Positions 32,211 through 53,812 are shown, counted from the first letter of the stretch. The stretch: 64,000 nt of DNA from a virus (IMGVR_UViG_3300021962_000059), one strand, 5' to 3'. A program made the numbers and translations. Notes: a model not told the origin generated them from the letters alone.

Positions 32211-35096
32211 TCAGGTACTTATATCCTGTAGATAACAGTTAGAAAATGGAATTGTAAAAGCGATCACAGACCCATTTAAGATAGTTTCTACCCTCAAAAG
32301 CCATTGATTGTCAAAAGTCACTTCGATAACTTTTCCGACTGCTCTTGGTGGGATAGTTCGCTCTCCTATCTCTATAGATGCACCCGTTCGCACTAATACC
32401 CTTTCTTTTTCAAGATCAGGAAGACTATCAATGTGTACACCATCAGCCGAGAACTCATCGACTGGCTCCGATTCAACTTCTACTATCTCAGGGTTAGAGA
32501 TCGGTTCATTTTTTGGAGTAGGAGTGGGAATCTGGACAATTTCCTCTTTTATTTCTGATTGATATTCCAGAGATTCGGGTTCTTCTATCTCAAAAGCTTC
32601 TAATTCTTTTGGCTCTTGATAGCGCAGTATCATGCCCCTTGATTTGACCTCTAATCGTCCATAGCCAGCTTGTTCTAACTGAGTAAGTAGGGTGCGGGCA
32701 ATAGAGGTGTTTACTTTTTCCCCGTTAATTTTACGCCCGCCGAATTTTTGGGCAACTTCCCGGGGTTTAATCTGTCCTGCGCTTTTGACAATCTCCCATA
32801 TCTCGGATAAGATTCCCTGTACCGGATTCTCATCCTGAGAAGTAACCCCTTGAATTGTCAAGAATTGACTGATATAGAAGTCAGTCATCTTAGCAGCTTT
32901 TTTAGCTGTTTGTACTGGTATTTTATAGAGGTCGGTATTATCTGGATCAAATATCCAGTTCAATAGATGGATTGCCAGAGTAAGCCTTAAGAAAGTCTTC
33001 ATCTGTTTCCCTATATAAGAAGCAAATGATGGATTAATCGCCCGATACTTTTTGATAAGCATCTCGTAATGATACTTAATACCGAAGGCATAATCCTCTC
33101 CAGTTTCGGTAAACCAACAATTATAAGGATCGACGATTCCATCTTCATCAGCTTCTAGATTAATCCCGCTGATTTGATTGATAATATTTTGGATGCACTC
33201 TTGAATCGAGTTAGGGTCTTCTGGCGGTCTCCCACGTTGAGGATCGAGGGGTTCATGCAATAGGAAAAGAAACCGAGAAACCAATCCATCTACATCATTA
33301 GATAGGTCTAAGTATTTTTGTACTTTCTGTATCTGTATCCCACCTAATATATTGATAGTTTGCCCATTCAGGAAATAGCGATTTTCCTCTTTTACCCTAT
33401 CAAAAGTATTTTGTACTGGATCATTCCAAGATGATAATAATCGTTGCCGGTCATTACCTTTACCGCCCGACCGGTATTGATTTAAGCCTTCAAATAATCC
33501 CGTTAACTCATCCGCTACCCACACCCCACCTTGCCAACGAGGTTGAGTGGACATCGTTTTCAGGACACCATCGAAAGTTCCTTCGTCATAAAACCAGCGA
33601 CGGGATTGACAGTTTTCTTTTTCGTAAAGACTAGGATTTACTTCAGCGTTTTCTTTGTGTATGCTACGCTCTTCGCGGGTCATTTCTGCCCATTCTGCTT
33701 TTAATTCTTTTAGCCTAGCTTGCTTTTTAGAGAGCCTTTCTAACTCATCTAAGTCCTTTCTTTTTAATACCTTGTAAATTTCTTTTTGAGTAGTAGTTTT
33801 CCCACTACTTACACCACCAGCATCAGCACAATAAAAAATCGGGTATTCTTTCCAGCACTCCCTTTCCCTTGCAGTAGTTCGGAGGTTAACTGCAAATCGA
33901 CTACCTAAGATAGCCCCTAATATTGGCCATAGGGAGTGTAGCAATCGGATTGGGGGCTGGTTAAGTGTTCTGGCGCGGGATATGATTGCCTCAGCTAAAG
34001 GTTGGGGTAATATTTGAAAAAGATCAATCTCTTTTTTCTGATAATGCTTACCCCTTAAAAAACCCTCTAATCCTGTTTTAATAGCGTCCCCTTCCGCTAT
34101 TTCTGTTTTACGAATTTCGATTAAATGCCGTATTTCTGTTGGCTTTTTACCAGTGGCTTTTGCCCATAAATCGACTTTTTCTTGCCATTGGGTTCTAGTG
34201 ATTTCCTCTTGTCCAATACAGCCGTCAATGGCTGTTATTAAGTCTTGGAAAGTCATAGTTTCTGTTACTGTGACTTCCTTCTCTTTTTTCTCCTTTACTT
34301 CTTTTGGTTTGTCAACTATCGAGGCTAATAGTTCTTTAAGATCAATTTTCTTTTCCTCAATCCAGTTGATGATATCTACCCCCTGAGAATCTGGCAAGTG
34401 ATTCCATATAAGAGAGTCTGGATAGGCATAAAGCCATTTTGCTTCTGGGAAATCTTGATAAATTTTCTGGCAGTGAGCTACTCCCCCTTTGTCACGGTCC
34501 GGGCATAAAACTAATTTTGCTCCCTTTAAAGCTTCTGTGTGAGACGGTTGCCATTTCTTTGATCCGCCTATATTGCAAGTGGCAACTAATCCAAAAGATT
34601 CAAGCTTTTCTACTTTAGTCTCACCCTCGACTATATAAATCGGAGTTCCTTCCTTGATAGCCTTTTCTAGGCGATCTGCGTGGTAAAGAGGTATATTTTT
34701 GTACTCAATATCACCTATGCCCCACTTCCAGTTTTTACCATTATCTGTAGAGTGCTGTTGTTTTATATCCTTTTTCCAAATACCATCTTCTTTGTAATCC
34801 TTCCGGTACACACGGACTCTCACCCCATTGGCAAGAGGGGGATAAAGGAAGTATTGGGTTTTTTCTTCTTTATAGGCAGAAAATTTGACTTCTTTTTTAA
34901 GATAGTAGAGCGGTGTACCCTCACTATCTACTTTGCTCGATTTTTCCCATCCTGGTGCGGGGTCATAGTTTCGTTTGCAGACTGAGATGGTATTGCCGTC
35001 ATCGGCTACATACATATAGCACCAATCGGGCTTGCCACAGTGGGGGCAAGGATTGTTTTTGTCGATCTTGACACGGTTAGAGTTTTGTGTTACCAT
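32211..35096 (-). CDS. DNA primase / helicase (Zn-binding N-terminus + Toprim + P-loop NTPase domain)
   Basis: 961 aa. CPHCGKPDWC...VCKR, Toprim motifs IYIVEGETKVEKL and LCPDRDKGG, and Walker A DAGGVSSGKTT. Confidence 0.8.
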   Translation of the reverse strand: MVTQNSNRVKIDKNNPCPHCGKPDWCYMYVADDGNTISVCKRNYDPAPGWEKSSKVDSEGTPLYYLKKEVKFSAYKEEKTQYFLYPPLANGVRVRVYRKDYKEDGIWKKDIKQQHSTDNGKNWKWGIGDIEYKNIPLYHADRLEKAIKEGTPIYIVEGETKVEKLESFGLVATCNIGGSKKWQPSHTEALKGAKLVLCPDRDKGGVAHCQKIYQDFPEAKWLYAYPDSLIWNHLPDSQGVDIINWIEEKKIDLKELLASIVDKPKEVKEKKEKEVTVTETMTFQDLITAIDGCIGQEEITRTQWQEKVDLWAKATGKKPTEIRHLIEIRKTEIAEGDAIKTGLEGFLRGKHYQKKEIDLFQILPQPLAEAIISRARTLNQPPIRLLHSLWPILGAILGSRFAVNLRTTARERECWKEYPIFYCADAGGVSSGKTTTQKEIYKVLKRKDLDELERLSKKQARLKELKAEWAEMTREERSIHKENAEVNPSLYEKENCQSRRWFYDEGTFDGVLKTMSTQPRWQGGVWVADELTGLFEGLNQYRSGGKGNDRQRLLSSWNDPVQNTFDRVKEENRYFLNGQTINILGGIQIQKVQKYLDLSNDVDGLVSRFLFLLHEPLDPQRGRPPEDPNSIQECIQNIINQISGINLEADEDGIVDPYNCWFTETGEDYAFGIKYHYEMLIKKYRAINPSFASYIGKQMKTFLRLTLAIHLLNWIFDPDNTDLYKIPVQTAKKAAKMTDFYISQFLTIQGVTSQDENPVQGILSEIWEIVKSAGQIKPREVAQKFGGRKINGEKVNTSIARTLLTQLEQAGYGRLEVKSRGMILRYQEPKELEAFEIEEPESLEYQSEIKEEIVQIPTPTPKNEPISNPEIVEVESEPVDEFSADGVHIDSLPDLEKERVLVRTGASIEIGERTIPPRAVGKVIEVTFDNQWLLRVETILNGSVIAFTIPFSNCYLQDIST
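35068..35096 (+). promoter_or_regulatory. Possible + strand promoter TTGACA-N17-TACCAT, antisense to the primase start
   Basis: The -10 overlaps the primase ATG (35094..35096). A + oriented terminator follows ~35 nt downstream. Confidence 0.3.
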
Positions 35097-37296: not shown

Positions 37297-38358
37297 TTAA
37301 CTCAATCTTTCTACAAAATCAATGACTTTTCCCCATAACTCTTTAGGGAAATCTACGGTCATTGTATTATCGCTTGTTTGCCTTGCGTTCCCCTCGTTTA
37401 CTAGAGTGATTAGCAGACCCTTAGCCTCTTTAGCTTTGGGAGGAAGTTTAATTGGTTTTGGCTCTAATTCGTCGCTGGGTTTTACACTTCCATCAGAGTC
37501 TAGAAAACTTGGATTCTTAGACTCTATAAAGTTGGCTGTTATCGATTGAACCAATTCTCCAGTGGCTTTTATTCCTTTTTCTTCTGCTATAGCTACAGTC
37601 TCCAAAAGGACATTTTCTTTCTCTGAAAGTGTTAGTTCATTTTTCCTCACAAGGTTGTGTAAAGTCGTTTCGGATACCTTACCTTCGATTGCTTTTAATG
37701 TCGAAGCAGACATCGAAGAAATCTCTAGAGTTCGATCATATTCTGATTGTTTCCATCCTGTTTTTTTGCAAAACTGTTGACGGGATTCGTCTTCGGTGAA
37801 ACCTTCTAATCTGTCCTCGTGTAAATGTCTTTTAATCAATTTCGCCTTGTCATACACCGATAGTTTTTCGCTGTCAGTGCCGTAACTTAGCATTTGATAC
37901 TCTAAGTCCCGGACGGTCAGACCTGCTACTAGAGGCTTAATAATCGCCGAAACATTAGGAACAATAATCCCTCGAGAGGCTAAAAGTAACCAAGCTAATA
38001 CCCTTCGATGCCCGTCCATAGGAAACAATCTATCACCGTCCGCAATTAAGTGCAAGGGTTGATGGATTACTCCTGATGCTAGTATCCTGTCAGCTAATTC
38101 TTGAATCAAATCCAAATCGTAGGCGATACGGGTATTCCATCCGTTTTCGCCAGAAATAGACTCAATTAGGTCTTGACTAAAGGTTAAGGGAGTTTCGTTA
38201 GGTAGGACGTGCATTTTGCGGTCGTCATACAGTCCTATCCTCGGACCGATGAAGTCACGATTGGCTAACCTGAAAGAAATTAGTCGAGGATCAACTACGA
38301 TTAATTCTCCCCGTGCAGAGCCGTAAGCTCTGATTTTGTCTCTTGAATTTGTACTCAT
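37297..38358 (-). CDS. ParB/Srx-fold (ParB N-terminal nuclease-like) domain protein
   Basis: 353 aa. GVIHQPLHLIADGDRLFPMDGHRRVLAWLL resembles the ParB box (…QP…DGxxYxxxDGHHR). Confidence 0.7.
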   Translation of the reverse strand: MSTNSRDKIRAYGSARGELIVVDPRLISFRLANRDFIGPRIGLYDDRKMHVLPNETPLTFSQDLIESISGENGWNTRIAYDLDLIQELADRILASGVIHQPLHLIADGDRLFPMDGHRRVLAWLLLASRGIIVPNVSAIIKPLVAGLTVRDLEYQMLSYGTDSEKLSVYDKAKLIKRHLHEDRLEGFTEDESRQQFCKKTGWKQSEYDRTLEISSMSASTLKAIEGKVSETTLHNLVRKNELTLSEKENVLLETVAIAEEKGIKATGELVQSITANFIESKNPSFLDSDGSVKPSDELEPKPIKLPPKAKEAKGLLITLVNEGNARQTSDNTMTVDFPKELWGKVIDFVERLS

Positions 38359-38363
38359 GTGTT

Positions 38364-38783
38364 TTACTCCTTAGATGTGTTTGGTTTGTAAGGCCAACTG
38401 TGATATGTTCCGTATATTTCTTTGTAGTCACCCTCGACTACAAAGTTAGAGGCTATTGCTATAGAAAGCATAAACAAGTTAGCATCTGTCTTTAATTGTT
38501 TAGGAATAAAAACATCTGTCTTGCAAAAAGCAAGAAATAACCACACCCAAAATGTTATTTTCTTTGTAATAGATTGATTCCAATCGTAATTATCAAGAAG
38601 AAGACAATCCATTATATTGCCTTTGATTGCGGATTTATAAAACAGTTCTAAATAGTCTAATTTAGGATTCTGCTTCACTTCTAATACTAAAGCGTCAACG
38701 TATTGTTTAGCTTCGATAGGCAGTCTATCGTATTGTTTCCGAACTAGCATTGCGCGTCGAATGTCCATTTGTTGAATGTCCAT
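38364..38783 (-). CDS. Paralog family 2 (PF2) member
   Basis: 139 aa. EAKQYVDALVLEVKQNP ... FWVWLFLAFCKTDVFIPKQLKTDANLFMLSIAIASNFVVEGDY. Confidence 0.6.
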   Translation of the reverse strand: MDIQQMDIRRAMLVRKQYDRLPIEAKQYVDALVLEVKQNPKLDYLELFYKSAIKGNIMDCLLLDNYDWNQSITKKITFWVWLFLAFCKTDVFIPKQLKTDANLFMLSIAIASNFVVEGDYKEIYGTYHSWPYKPNTSKE

Positions 38784-38825
38784 TGGGTTACTCCTGTTTT
38801 AGATTATTTTTAGTTGTTTCTTGCT

Positions 38826-39224
38826 TTATTCGTAGTCCCAATCATAGGGAGGTTCGTTGACATAACCTTCTTCTACAAAATAACTAGCTATAACAAGAGA
38901 TTGCAGAAGAAGACAATAGTTTTCTTTGAGAATTCTAGGTATTACTACACCTGTTAGTAACGAATACAGAAACAGGAATATCCTAGTTTTTAAGTACCAA
39001 AAACACCCTCCTTCTCTGAAAAGATCAGCGTCAATAAATGCGCCGCTCAAAAGTACATCTATGCCACCTGTTTCGATTGCGCCATCATAAAATCCTTTTA
39101 ACACTGTTGATACAAAGGGCTTTTTCGATGCTCTGGTTGCTAAGCGATTGACGTAATGCTTGGCTTCTTTTGGTAACTCATCGTAACTTAAATCGATTAG
39201 TATTCGATAGGTTTGAGTGTTCAT
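38826..39224 (-). CDS. PF2 member
   Basis: 132 aa. EAKHYVNRLATRASKKP ... IFLFLYSLLTGVVIPRILKENYCLLLQSLVIASYFVEEGY. Confidence 0.6.
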   Translation of the reverse strand: MNTQTYRILIDLSYDELPKEAKHYVNRLATRASKKPFVSTVLKGFYDGAIETGGIDVLLSGAFIDADLFREGGCFWYLKTRIFLFLYSLLTGVVIPRILKENYCLLLQSLVIASYFVEEGYVNEPPYDWDYE

Positions 39225-39235
39225 TGTTTTACTCC

Positions 39236-39628
39236 TTAGTTGTTGTCGGTTATTTCTTTATACCAGCTTTTTTCTACTAGAAAAATCGACGCTAGTGTTA
39301 AAGCTTTTCTGAAAAGATGTGGATATTTCTTGAGAGGAGAAGGAATAGTAATTCCTGTACATATAGGCATAACAATAGTTACGACCCAAAACTTAAACCG
39401 ATTAATAAAAGAAAGATTCCATTTATCATCGGATAAATACGGATAGATGTATCCTTTTTGTATATCCCCTTCCCACCACCAGATTAATATCTCATTAGTT
39501 ACTTGACTGGTTTCAGATGCTTTTAACAAATCATCGATCCATTTTTTTGAGTCAAAAGATGATTCGAGGTATTTATTTTTAACTATAAGCTTAAGTAGTC
39601 GATTTTTGAATTGCGGGTTGATGTTCAT
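39236..39628 (-). CDS. PF2 member
   Basis: 130 aa. SKKWIDDLLKASETSQ ... FKFWVVTIVMPICTGITIPSPLKKYPHLFRKALTLASIFLVEKSW. Confidence 0.6.
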   Translation of the reverse strand: MNINPQFKNRLLKLIVKNKYLESSFDSKKWIDDLLKASETSQVTNEILIWWWEGDIQKGYIYPYLSDDKWNLSFINRFKFWVVTIVMPICTGITIPSPLKKYPHLFRKALTLASIFLVEKSWYKEITDNN

Positions 39629-39683
39629 CGGTTTACTCCTTGATTGTGTTAATTATTGCTGACAACTGATAGCCAAAATCAAA

Positions 39684-39908
39684 CTATTGAAATTTATCAA
39701 CTGCCCCCCTTTTTTTTATTATTTCATCTGTTTTATCCATCATTATTGATGTAAAAAGGTCAAGAGCATCTTGGTTACTTTGCGCTAATGCCATTAACTC
39801 TTCTGGGTTAGATTTCATGAAAATATCTAAATTAGTAGCCATGATAGATAAAGCTTCAATTTTTCGCTTTAAACTCCAATCTTTCGTTAATTTTTCTTCA
39901 TGTGTCAC
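39684..39908 (-). CDS. Hypothetical small protein
   Basis: 74-aa ORF with a GGGAG SD. Confidence 0.5.
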   Translation of the reverse strand: MTHEEKLTKDWSLKRKIEALSIMATNLDIFMKSNPEELMALAQSNQDALDLFTSIMMDKTDEIIKKRGAVDKFQ

Positions 39909-39971
39909 TGTTTTACTCCCTAATTGTGTTAATTCTTACTGATAACTAATAACTGATAACTAATCAGACTT

Positions 39972-40628
39972 CTAAATACGCCAATCGCTTTCGACTAAAC
40001 GCGTTGAAGCTAACAGTAACGCCCTTTTAAAAAGAACGAAATCTTTCCTGATTGATTGTGGTATAGAGATTCCCGTATAAATAGGAATAAAAGTCGTGAG
40101 TCCCCAAAATTTAAGAGCGTCAATGAAAGAAAGGTTAATGCCTTCTATTTGCCCGCTCCCTTGCCAGTACCACCACTCTAAAAGCTGTTTAACTCTTGGA
40201 TTAGTAGATGATTCTAGAATATTAACCCATTTTTTTGCGTCGTCAGACAAGTTGTCGTAGGTATTCTTTGAATCATACTCAAAAGATTTACTTATTTCCA
40301 AATCATTCCAATCAAAACCCCACTTTTTAACACAGACCGTGAGGACTGGAAAAGAGGTAACTTTTCCTTTAATCCAGATATAATGTTTGCCTGGTTTTAA
40401 TGAGTCTATCAAGGTGATTTTTTCGAGAATAAACAAGTATGTTAAATCAAGCTTGATGGTTTCCCATGTAAATTTACACAGGATTTTAAAGTTCAAAGTT
40501 TGATCGGAATTTACATTGCTAACCTGTCCATACAAACAAATAGAATCATTACTTTTAACTAAGGCTTGTTGCACTTGATCAGCAGTCAGTTCTGTCCACC
40601 AACCACGGCTTAAAAGATTCATGTTCAA
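39972..40628 (-). CDS. PF2 member with a ~110-aa N-terminal extension
   Basis: 218 aa. The C-terminal half reads DAKKWVNILESSTNP ... LKFWGLTTFIPIYTGISIPQSIRKDFVLFKRALLLASTRLVESDW. Confidence 0.6.
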   Translation of the reverse strand: MNMNLLSRGWWTELTADQVQQALVKSNDSICLYGQVSNVNSDQTLNFKILCKFTWETIKLDLTYLFILEKITLIDSLKPGKHYIWIKGKVTSFPVLTVCVKKWGFDWNDLEISKSFEYDSKNTYDNLSDDAKKWVNILESSTNPRVKQLLEWWYWQGSGQIEGINLSFIDALKFWGLTTFIPIYTGISIPQSIRKDFVLFKRALLLASTRLVESDWRI

Positions 40629-42098: not shown

Positions 42099-42127
42099 AT
42101 CTTATAGTAAATTACTAGAATTGTCAA
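42099..42127 (-). promoter_or_regulatory. Sigma70-type promoter TTGACA-N17-TAAGAT
   Basis: The minus strand reads ATCTTGACA ATTCTAGTAATTTACTA TAAGAT. The inverted 11-mer array (42137..42170) lies just upstream of the -35. Confidence 0.7.
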
Positions 42128-42200
42128 GATTTTTAAGAAAAAAACTTACAAAAAACTTACAAAAAATAATAGTACAAAAGAACTAAGTTATTATTGTAAT

Positions 42201-42444
42201 TAGATTGTAGATAAGGTGATCTACATTAGAATCCTTGATATATATAGGTTTCAGGCTTTGTAGATACTGTTATTGCTATCCCCCGATATTATTTTTTCTT
42301 GCCTCTCTTATTGTCCAGTCCGTTTATCATTCCTTTCTTTTTATTTTTCCTCTATGATCCGTCAACGCCATCAACAAAGCCTGAAACCCAGTCCTTGCAA
42401 GGATTTCGATTGTCGATAAGGTTATTGACAATCTATCTACAATG
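42201..42444. repeat. Iteron / inverted-repeat element, copy A (~245 bp)
   Basis: It is bounded by GATTGTAGATA (42203..) and TATCTACAAT (42434..). It contains about 6-7 copies or variants of TTGTAGAT in both orientations. A 15-bp perfect long-range inverted repeat GGTTTCAGGCTTTGT (42247..61) / ACAAAGCCTGAAACC (42374..88) flanks a pyrimidine-rich core. It is homologous to 53207..53461. Confidence 0.75.
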
Positions 42445-42559
42445 ACAACGAGTAAATATACTTAGTACAAACGTTCAGAAATTATTCTCCTATATAGTTG
42501 ATATTCATGGGAGAATGATCTAAGATAGGATCGAGTAAACAAAACACACACTGCAAATT

Positions 42560-52283: not shown

Positions 52284-53030
52284 TTATTCTCCGATTAATA
52301 GTTGACGGTTTCTAGCCTTAGAAAAAAGTTGCTTAACTTCCTTAAGGTTTTCGGTAGGGATGTAGGACGCTTGATTAACCCTTAACCCCTGACACACTAA
52401 ATGAGAGTGTCCATTTTTTTCTAGCCAACGCTCTAACTCTTTTCCAGACTTGAATCCTAGTTCTTTCCCTAACTCAGCAGTAGAGCGACCCTCAAAACTG
52501 ACATTCCGTCCGTTTTTACAGATAATTGTTTCAGTGACTTTTTCAACCTTCTCTATGACAATATCTGGACGGCCATCCAACAAGGCTAAAACCTCAGCAC
52601 CATGAATTAGTCGAATTGCGTCACGCCGATCCATGTAGTAGGTTTTAGCCTTTGTGAGTTCTAACTCAAGTTCTAATTCCCGAATACGCCCACTTTGAGC
52701 GGGGATTACTTCTTTGATGATTTGTTTTGCCTTTTCAAACCCATCAACCAGCTTTTCCTTGCAGTCTAAGACTTGTTCCGTATTACGAGAAAAAGTCATT
52801 AATAAGGTAGCTTGGTATTCGTTTAAGTAACAGTAAGAAACTTCATAAGTCCCTCCCTGTGGACGTTTCACCACGTCGATTTCAAATCGCACTGGTTCTT
52901 TTCGCTCTAAACGGTCAAGATGTTTCTTGATTGTCTTAAGTAAAGTTGCGTGTTCAATCCCCAACTCATCAGCAATCAAACGAGAATCGACGACAAGACA
53001 ATCATTCTGTGATACTATTTCAATAGCCAT
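52284..53030 (-). CDS. Rha-family phage regulatory protein (N-terminal) with an unknown C-terminal domain
   Basis: 248 aa. VVDSRLIADELGIEHATLLKTIKKHLDRLE resembles the Rha N-terminal motif (vsSr.iAe.fgk.H..vlr.I). It has an AGGAGG SD. Confidence 0.55.
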   Translation of the reverse strand: MAIEIVSQNDCLVVDSRLIADELGIEHATLLKTIKKHLDRLERKEPVRFEIDVVKRPQGGTYEVSYCYLNEYQATLLMTFSRNTEQVLDCKEKLVDGFEKAKQIIKEVIPAQSGRIRELELELELTKAKTYYMDRRDAIRLIHGAEVLALLDGRPDIVIEKVEKVTETIICKNGRNVSFEGRSTAELGKELGFKSGKELERWLEKNGHSHLVCQGLRVNQASYIPTENLKEVKQLFSKARNRQLLIGE

Positions 53031-53206
53031 ATTGGCCTCCTATTCAGGTAATGTGGTTAGTCCCCCGTTAGTACCGGGGGCATTACTACAATTGTACCAT
53101 CTCACATAGTTGCTTGACGATTCTAGTCAGTAAGAAGAAATAGTCAGGGAGAGAGGATTAAGATAATCCCCTCTCTTTTTTAGTGTCCTGTACTGGTAGC
53201 CATTGT

Positions 53207-53461
53207 TAGATTGTAAATAGATTGTAGATATTGCTATTAACAATAAAACCCTTGATATATATAGCTTCTAGACTTTGTAGATACTGTTGACACTATCCCC
53301 CGATATTATTTTTTATGCTCTTATTGTTGAGACTGTCTCCTCTCTTTACTCTATTTTCTTTTTTTCCTGTATAGAGCATCAACGGCATCTACAAAGTCTG
53401 AAATCTAGACAGGGTAAAGGTTTCGATTGTAGATAGGGTTATCTACAATCTATCTACAATC
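53207..53461. repeat. Iteron / inverted-repeat element, copy B (~250 bp)
   Basis: It begins with GATTGTAAATA-GATTGTAGATA. It ends with the perfect palindrome GATTGTAGATA-GGGT-TATCTACAATC followed by a further TATCTACAAT. A 13-bp long-range inverted repeat AGACTTTGTAGAT (53270..82) / ATCTACAAAGTCT (53387..99) is present. It shares the blocks CCTTGATATATATAG and CTATCCCCCGATATTATTTTTT with copy A. Confidence 0.75.
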
Positions 53462-53483
53462 CAACTTCCCGCGGTATTGCCTC

Positions 53484-53794
53484 TTAGTTGCGAGGAAAAA
53501 ACTCTGGACATCTGTTTTCAAGGGCATTCATCATAACTTTCCTTGTTGAGAGCCTTACTGCTTCGTCATGCAAAATATCCGTTATTTCCGATCCTACACC
53601 GGGACCTATATACATTCTTCTTTCATTTTGATAAACAGCATCCTTAATCGCTCCCATAGTTTCCCCTAGTGTCCATCCAGATTTAAGATAGTCACAGGTT
53701 CTTTTCTCAAGTATCTCTTGAGTCTGTTGTCAAGAGACAGTGCCACGGTAGGCATCATTCCTAAAAGCAATAAGCTTAAAGCAATCTTTCTCAT
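53484..53794 (-). pseudogene. Frameshifted gene for a small signal-peptide protein
   Basis: Frame 1 reads MRKIALSLLLLGMMPTVALSLDNRLKRYLRKEPVTILNLDGH*. A second frame is open from QQTQEILEKRTCDYLKSGWTLGETMGAIKDAVYQNERRMYIGPGVGSEITDILHDEAVRLSTRKVMMNALENRCPEFFPRN*. The span is 311 nt, which is not a multiple of 3. Confidence 0.4.
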
Positions 53795-53812
53795 CGAGGT
53801 TGTGGTAATTTT

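Follow-up and report, generated by a model that had tools for sequence, protein, structure and literature searches.

Dispersed arrays of palindromic sites in uncultured freshwater phages: candidate regulatory platforms and recombination hotspots

Introduction

A 64,000-nucleotide stretch of viral DNA (hereafter the window), which corresponds to bases 3113-67112 of a 67,154-bp IMG/VR virus contig (G000) that is estimated to be 74% complete, contains two similar non-coding elements in which short repeats face each other across a pyrimidine-rich centre. The question that these elements raise is what purpose an inverted array of this kind serves in a phage genome, particularly one in which it is repeated. 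The original prediction, which was made from the sequence of the window, entertained four explanations: replication origins, centromere-like sites for a ParB-like protein, MITE-like mobile elements, and structured RNA or single-stranded DNA maintained by selection on pairing.

The two copies in the window

Profile searches place the two copies, which have the same orientation, at 42187-42445 (copy A) and 53202-53465 (copy B). BLAST aligns them over 249 nt with 76% identity, and all of the conserved blocks that had been listed for them are found in their alignment (Table 1). As predicted, 11-mers are located in forward orientation at the left end and in reverse orientation at the right end of both elements, and these account for 8 of the 12 matches in the window. 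When up to one mismatch is allowed, GATTGTAGATA is represented 12 times in the window compared with an expectation of 1.84, a number that none of 100 shuffles attained. The original count of six to seven core copies per element became seven in copy A and nine in copy B when two mismatches were tolerated, and the pyrimidine-rich centre is present in both copies with a length of 88 nt. The statement that the copies occupy the two largest non-coding gaps holds roughly, once a repeat tract at 49.8-50.6 kb is excluded. A third site, missed in the original prediction, is found outside the window at the very start of the contig (G000:1-430), where the contig end truncates one copy and an additional right half comes after it.

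To the right of copy B (window 53484-53800) there are two short reading frames of 57 and 42 aa. At this position relatives possess a single gene encoding 97-103 aa, with a signal-peptide-like N-terminus, that ends 20-24 bp from the array, and it is probable that the gene in the window is frameshifted.

Table 1. Features of the two arrays and their immediate flanks (window coordinates)
Feature	Position	Strand	Description
Copy A, L unit	42187..42328	+	nhmmer module mL, score 85, and motif map; half-sites 42192-42202; 26-bp palindrome 42203-42228, then TTGATATATATAG block; inner motif TTTGTAGATA 42257-42266, then left half of centre, ending ...GTTTATC
Copy A, R unit	42329..42445	+	module mR, score 88; right half-centre; inner inverted motif within 42365-42384; 26-bp palindrome 42408-42433; terminal half-site TATCTACAATG 42434-42444
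Copy A, centre	42276..42364	+	88-89 nt; 36% GC; 78% pyrimidine
Copy B, L unit	53202..53343	+	module mL, score 95; unit boundary approximate; tandem half-sites 53209-53219; palindrome 53220-53245; TTGATATATATAG; inner motif 53271-53290; left half-centre
Copy B, R unit	53344..53465	+	module mR, score 100; right half-centre; inner inverted motif 53379-53398; extra half-site 53451-53461
Copy B, R unit palindrome	53425-53450		perfect palindrome GATTGTAGATA-GGGT-TATCTACAATC
Copy B, centre	53291..53378	+	88 nt; 34% GC; 73% pyrimidine
Promoter-like site left of copy A	42099..42127	-	TTGACA-N17-TAAGAT; about 65 bp outside L arm; conserved in orthologous LF4
Promoter-like site right of copy A	42498..42526	+	TTGATA-N17-TAAGAT; about 50 bp outside R arm
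Terminator-like hairpin left of copy B	53146..53182	+	hairpin followed by T6; immediately left of L arm; compensatory stem changes in orthologues

Modular architecture

When its two halves were profiled separately, the element proved to be composed of two separable units, left and right, which are designated here as L and R. Both are built from a motif, WTTGTWRATA, that was derived from 153 instances and is present in four to five copies per unit, including those that form a 26-bp palindrome (11 + 4 + 11). In the L unit, one or two half-sites at an 11-bp phase are followed by the 26-bp palindrome and then by a near-invariant TTGATATATATAG block, inward of which are found one or two inner copies of the motif (approximately 40 bp from the palindrome), CCCC(C)G, a T-run and a pyrimidine-rich tail. 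An imperfect mirror of this order is seen in the R unit, which lacks the TATATATA block and has a CTnTATAnAG palindrome in its place. Within each of copies A and B the two arms are inverted with respect to each other and are 73-80% complementary over 45-49 nt.

A variety of architectures is observed among approximately 110 sites, namely LLRR (42), LRR (32), LR (17), solitary R (nine), RR at contig ends (five) and solitary L (two), and an arrangement in which L and R are separated by cargo is also present among relatives. L precedes R in every case, and solitary units retain full profile scores. Each site has 8-20 copies of the motif and two to four palindromes, with palindromes spaced 205-207 bp apart in every LR and LRR array and 240-242 bp apart in LLRR arrays. 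The length of the centre is likewise either 88-90 or 99-101 nt, although its sequence is highly divergent. Its GC content averages 35% (range 28-42%), compared with approximately 37% for the genome and 26% for the L arm, and pyrimidines comprise 69-78% of the + strand in all 23 representatives that we compared (mean 74%).

Columns of the alignment that belong to the motif evolve approximately 1.7 times more slowly than the rest of the element, both within site classes (divergence of 0.067 versus 0.115 in the other element columns) and between them (0.18 versus 0.31), which supports the earlier suggestion that the 11-mers may be protein-binding sites. A consensus scan and inspection by eye revealed no convincing promoters inside the arms or the centre, and no small ORF is conserved within the centre.

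Small inversions are also apparent in these sequences. When right-arm palindromes are aligned, the spacer found at a given position in the 26-bp palindrome reads GGGT in some copies and ACCC in others, and likewise AGGT and ACCT, and in locus L075 (4569-4887) the 15-nt TTGATATATATAG block is flipped between GAAAG and CTTTC. These look like the outcome of hairpin-mediated loop flipping. The combination of an 11 + 4 + 11 palindrome with a spacer in two orientations had also suggested the core of a site-specific recombination system, but four near-complete genomes encode no tyrosine or serine recombinase, and small inversions mediated by hairpins account better for the two spacer orientations than a recombinase would.

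Distribution among genomes

The pattern GATTGTNGATANNNTTATNNACAATC has matches in 96 IMG/VR stretches. Five records of 78-90 kb, which are 86-100% complete, contain three to five sites each, in both orientations. No similar DNA was found in the isolated phages of INPHARED, and comparison of the primase and tail proteins with isolated phages identified remote relatives only, the weak best matches being to Synechococcus and Microcystis phages. Among 185,579 species genomes only one, a Lake Mendota MAG assigned to Crocinitomicaceae, contains the full element, in three of its contigs, and the nine other pattern matches are located in unrelated MAGs without the element. One of the three contigs, 86.5 kb long (JBIPMW010000308.1; loci L106, L114 and L118), has three arrays and is most likely a binned phage. 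This bin is probably not indicative of the host, since the phage has Shine-Dalgarno sites and TTGACA-type promoters. The arrays belong to a family of uncultured freshwater phages, in whose genomes they occupy three to five fixed intergenic positions; as the loci were chosen by the presence of the pattern, truly empty sites would escape detection.

Pairing between the arms

The inverted arms, and the bases that appeared to covary between copies A and B, had raised the possibility of a structured RNA or single-stranded DNA element, considered here as a hairpin or cruciform (for example a processing site), in which pairing between the arms is under selection. Each copy indeed folds as a single strand far better than its shuffles (z scores of -5.9 and -6.7 for A and B), giving a long hairpin as would any inverted repeat, and the loops that flip between inverted repeats could be viewed in the same light. 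However, RNAalifold analysis of 23 diverse copies returned a total of -15.3 kcal/mol, in which the covariation term contributes only -1.06 kcal/mol, and a single long-range helix was retained beside short local ones. When the arm-arm structure was evaluated across these 23 copies, 84.4% of cells were paired compared with 82.8% in shuffles, and the number of pairs that had changed on both sides (15) was at the level of the shuffles (15.0; 315 of 500 reached 15). Double-changed cells were more frequent (51 versus 35.9 in shuffles), an excess of a size that relatedness alone can give.

The pair cited originally, GGC/GCC in copy A versus GAC/GTC in copy B, is a true difference between the two copies but does not extend to a compensatory pattern across the family, the pair being AU in six copies, GC in four and unpaired in the remaining 13 of 23. 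Overall, 21% of cells are non-Watson-Crick, and G:T mismatches (86) roughly equal A:C mismatches (74), so that neither strand is favoured as RNA. The elements gave no match to Rfam at E<=1, and solitary and split units are unable to pair. We conclude that conserved copies of the motif, rather than selection for pairing, account for the inverted symmetry, and we consider it highly improbable that the element is maintained as a folded nucleic acid.

Site classes, reassortment and cargo

Clustering of the 400-bp flanks revealed four site classes that are positionally conserved across dozens of contigs. Class C has the left flank LF1, the architecture LLRR and the right flank RF1; class D has LF2, LF5 or LF6 to the left of LRR and RF2 to the right; and class B has LR between LF3 and RF3. 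Class A is variable in both its architecture and its right flank, and its left flank, which is always LF4, is joined to RF2, RF5, RF4 or cargo according to the relative. For example, site A consists of LR followed by RF2 in the window and in L052/L098, and of LRR followed by RF2 in L029. In L044, L089 and L095 it comprises LR, a gene encoding 208 aa, R and the end of a tail gene, and in G001 and G003 it comprises L, cargo, R and the end of a tail gene. The homology of the latter two genomes to the window ends exactly after ...GTTTATC (42328) and resumes at the junction of ...TTATATC with TTC, and the cargo found at this L/R junction differs in its genes and in its length (approximately 3.3 kb in G001 and 1.5 kb in G003).

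From the conservation of the flank classes it follows that the arrays are fixed landmarks that have not been mobile recently. Comparison of the relatives also shows that neighbouring modules have been reassorted at the arrays and that cargo genes have accumulated there; because the same units of approximately 100 bp recur at three to five places, they act as hotspots of recombination. Single units persist with their sites intact.

A different interpretation of these arrangements is that the element is a MITE-like mobile element, or that the more complex arrays are nested insertions of one. The arms could then be regarded as terminal inverted arrays, similar to the ends of Tn7 or Mu, LLRR resembles an LR that is inserted in the centre of another LR, and the cargo in G001 and G003 occupies a single point, with TTTATC on one side and TTATATC on the other. 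This interpretation predicts dispersed copies with target-site duplications. The four site classes instead keep their flanks across dozens of contigs, and the 185,579 species genomes are devoid of copies save for the phage-like contigs of one MAG. No direct repeat is shared by the flanks of A or by those of B, which is a weak test since the ends of the element are fuzzy, and the four near-complete relatives lack integrases and resolvases of the tyrosine and serine families, to which the search was directed. Of the explanations considered here, we regard a mobile element as the least probable.

The cargo in site A of G001 (89.5-90.6 kb and 0.4-2.1 kb; L119 and L120) contains two paralogous genes, one encoding 322 aa with a HEAT-like C-terminus and the other 555 aa with DUF7226. 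The two genes share a 724-bp stretch that is 99% identical and is located at 89764-90487, in the last 0.8 kb of the record, and at 1345-2068, near its start, and the point at which the assembly was cut is probably explained by this near-identical stretch. In some relatives the left neighbour of site A is a gene encoding a RecT-like single-strand annealing protein (L089, 4675-5541); the equivalent slot in the window is occupied by a gene encoding 97 aa and a Gp3-like gene.

Location at transcription-unit boundaries

The arrays are located at the boundaries of transcription units, with an upstream terminator on one side and a sigma-70-type promoter 50-90 bp outside the other arm. In flanks whose upstream gene points at the array, the L unit is abutted by a terminator-like hairpin in which orthologues show compensatory changes, as is observed for LF1, LF2, LF3, LF5 and LF6. 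Copy A is located between divergent promoter-like sites. The leftward promoter (42127-42099) heads a 41-kb replication-gene operon that includes the Gp3-like, ParB-like and primase-helicase genes. The rightward one has its -35 hexamer inside an inverted repeat (TTCTCC.../...GGGAGAA) and is part of a conserved RF2 promoter-leader cassette, which also follows the LRR sites of relatives and consists of a -35 sequence (TTGACT/TTGATA) in an inverted repeat, N17, TAnnAT, a leader and an ATG. The gene that follows this cassette has a conserved N-terminus, while the remainder of its sequence varies. Copy B is located upstream of a leftward gene encoding a Rha protein (52284-53030).

Additional short units are found in the vicinity of some arrays. 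A promoter-like sequence, CTTGAC(A/G)ATTCTA..., that is followed some 30-50 nt on by a hairpin and a T-run points into the neighbouring array to the right of the contig-start site (G000, L003 430-600) and to the left of copy B (53113-53182). The promoter is of the same type as that at 42099-42127 before the long leftward operon, and such sequences could be either very small transcription units or remnants left by the shuffling of cassettes. In LLRR arrays one to five tandem copies of a 21-22-bp unit, AATGTTCGGAGCTTNGTGGGT, separate the terminator from the first L and constitute a variable-number repeat (L058, approximately 1150-1440; other LF1 flanks in L020, L113 and L015).

Candidate DNA-binding proteins

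Genes of one paralogous family are located directly upstream of 52 sites of classes C and D (LLRR and LRR). The encoded proteins belong to no Pfam or PHROG family. An AlphaFold model (pLDDT 73) predicts an N-terminal alpha/beta domain followed by a helix of approximately 85 residues, a long coiled coil, and the best fold match of the N-terminal domain in the PDB, albeit a weak one, is to the APSES DNA-binding domain of Mbp1 (probability 0.96, E 0.07, TM 0.56 on the target). The slot of this family is taken by a Bro-N protein in L077, and no member was found in the window's own contig, as far as its 74% completeness allows. As a guess, the protein that binds the arrays might be this KilA-N/APSES-like coiled-coil protein found upstream of C and D arrays in relatives; equally by way of a guess, it might be the Rha protein adjoining copy B or the ParB/Srx-like protein encoded 3.8 kb from copy A. 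To our knowledge, the consensus sites of NtcA, HLR1/RpaB, LexA and Fur do not fit the motif in their spacing.

The last of these candidates (37297-38358) is also the protein for which the original prediction had proposed centromere-like sites. The arrays would then be dispersed centromeres or ParB-loading sites, comparable to sopC of N15 or to the OB sites of KorB. The protein contains a DGHRR motif and has weak matches to ParB-like PHROG families (E 9e-7), it is conserved at 84-86% identity in four of four near-complete relatives, where it is encoded 2-4 kb from site A, and the palindromes are dispersed near promoters. Nevertheless, it scores only 11.2 bits against Pfam ParB_N, for which the cut-off is 26.3, and it has no Pfam match at E<=0.01. 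ParA, searched for as PF13614 (AAA_31), is absent from G000-G004, in which the controls were detected, no tyrosine or serine recombinase was found, and the sites are unlike the 16-bp parS. These results weaken the centromere proposal, which we judge to be very unlikely. Moreover, since neither ParA (AAA_31) nor a tyrosine or serine recombinase was found in four near-complete genomes, nothing points to life as a plasmid-prophage or to lysogeny. Between the ParB-like and Gp3-like genes the window contains four tandem paralogues of PHROG 23556 (38364-40628).

The possibility of replication origins

The origin proposed at the outset would most readily be of the SaPI/P4 type, in which a primase-helicase binds inverted iterons and melts the centre, and here there would be several origins per genome. 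The predicted repeat sets are indeed opposed, and they flank a centre of fixed length (approximately 90 nt), as in SaPI origins (PMC9371898). A primase-helicase (961 aa, DUF3987; 32211-35096) is encoded in the operon headed by copy A, which is itself between divergent promoters, and on paper the inverted-iteron layout fits the origin of a self-loading helicase equally well. However, other parts of the proposal did not stand. The centre, with 35% GC compared with approximately 37% for the genome, is not an AT-rich unwinding region, and the initiator gene does not adjoin the element, the site nearest to the helicase gene (42187) being 7 kb away, whereas SaPI origins abut rep. There are three to five sites per genome, their architectures differ (LRR versus LLRR), and L and R retain intact sites even where they are solitary or where 1.5-3.3 kb of cargo separates them. 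GC skew is monotonic and reflects the strand of the genes, and the elements do not coincide with any switch in it. The helicase, like the ParB-like protein, has no sequence match in the PDB, so that a winged-helix origin-binding domain in it is hypothetical. We consider it rather unlikely that the arrays are primarily origins.

Proposed regulatory platforms for an oligomeric protein

The explanation that we favour, with a probability of roughly 0.45, is that an oligomeric DNA-binding protein of the phage uses the arrays as regulatory platforms, which would be similar in kind to the homologous regions (hrs) of baculoviruses, and that the arrays double as recombination hotspots. They would thus be dispersed and positionally fixed arrays of putative sites for a sequence-specific and probably oligomeric protein encoded by the phage. 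The working unit would be a single arm, either L or R, that is usually paired face to face with another (LR). The phased sites could be coated by the protein, which might bridge L and R over the centre of fixed length, and when bound it may activate, repress or insulate the adjacent promoters during the infection programme. Homology between the arrays would drive the exchange of modules, and a second role as an origin, as in baculovirus hrs, would be compatible with this scheme. Two observations count against the platform model: the palindrome centres are approximately 80-90 bp from the -35 hexamers, which is further than the classical positions of activators, and the model assigns no function to the bias toward pyrimidines in the centre, which is strong and conserved.

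A more specific version of this model, which is speculative and which we hold to be unlikely, envisages a phage counterpart of hrs in which an adjacent oligomer of the KilA-N/APSES or Bro type binds the palindromes, switches on the next transcription unit and possibly fires replication. The L/R junction would capture both cassettes and further arrays, the latter giving rise to LLRR, and the arrays would serve as a platform for gene capture and regulation in a lytic lineage of cyanophages.

The platforms, if bound by proteins of the KilA-N, Bro or Rha types, would provide a concrete DNA target and a role for these common but poorly understood antirepressor-like proteins, and GATTGTAGATA-N4-TATCTACAATC represents a short, testable site. 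The arrays also explain breaks in assemblies, since the end of the contig truncates copy C and numerous matches are likewise found at contig ends, and they mark the places at which accessory genes are exchanged.

Comparison with known systems

Palindromic sites that are scattered near promoters are known from the KorB OB sites of RK2 and the dispersed sopC-like centromeres of N15. The phage arrays resemble these in the proximity of their palindromes to promoters and in the ParB-fold protein encoded nearby, but differ in that no ParA was detected, the match to ParB_N is below threshold, and the sites form many-membered arrays rather than single palindromes.

In P4, ori is accompanied by crr, a second and distant cis site with identical repeats. 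SaPI origins contain short repeats in two opposed sets around a centre and are served by self-loading Rep helicases (PMC9371898). The phage likewise encodes a primase-helicase and has opposed repeat sets around a centre. In contrast to the SaPI and P4 systems, this centre is not AT-rich, no site adjoins the helicase gene, there are three to five sites, and their halves persist apart.

The PeSL cassettes of T4-type phages, which are less than 100 bp in length and consist of a promoter and a stem-loop, are examples of repeated regulatory DNA that is located at gene boundaries and marks insertions, deletions or replacements between close relatives (PMC2839356, PMC4122927). Similarly, the arrays mark boundaries of insertion or replacement between relatives, and they are flanked by a terminator hairpin and a promoter cassette. 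The repeated unit is different, however, being an array of sites between the terminator and the promoter, and PeSLs do not contain phased-site arrays. Nor do the arrays show signs of minicircles or of mobility.

The hrs of baculoviruses are dispersed clusters of imperfect palindromes of approximately 26-30 bp that act as recombination hotspots, have bro genes adjacent to them and are candidates for a dual role as enhancers and origins. The phage arrays have no sequence relation to them and belong to viruses that infect bacteria, and their units have a fixed L/R polarity and a pyrimidine-rich centre. The arrays are also dispersed intergenic clusters of palindromes that number three to five per genome, constitute recombination hotspots, are adjoined by genes of the Bro-N, KilA-N or antirepressor type and are candidates for both roles. 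If the platform model is correct, the hr-like architecture, in which dispersed clusters of palindromes both regulate and recombine, arose independently in phages.
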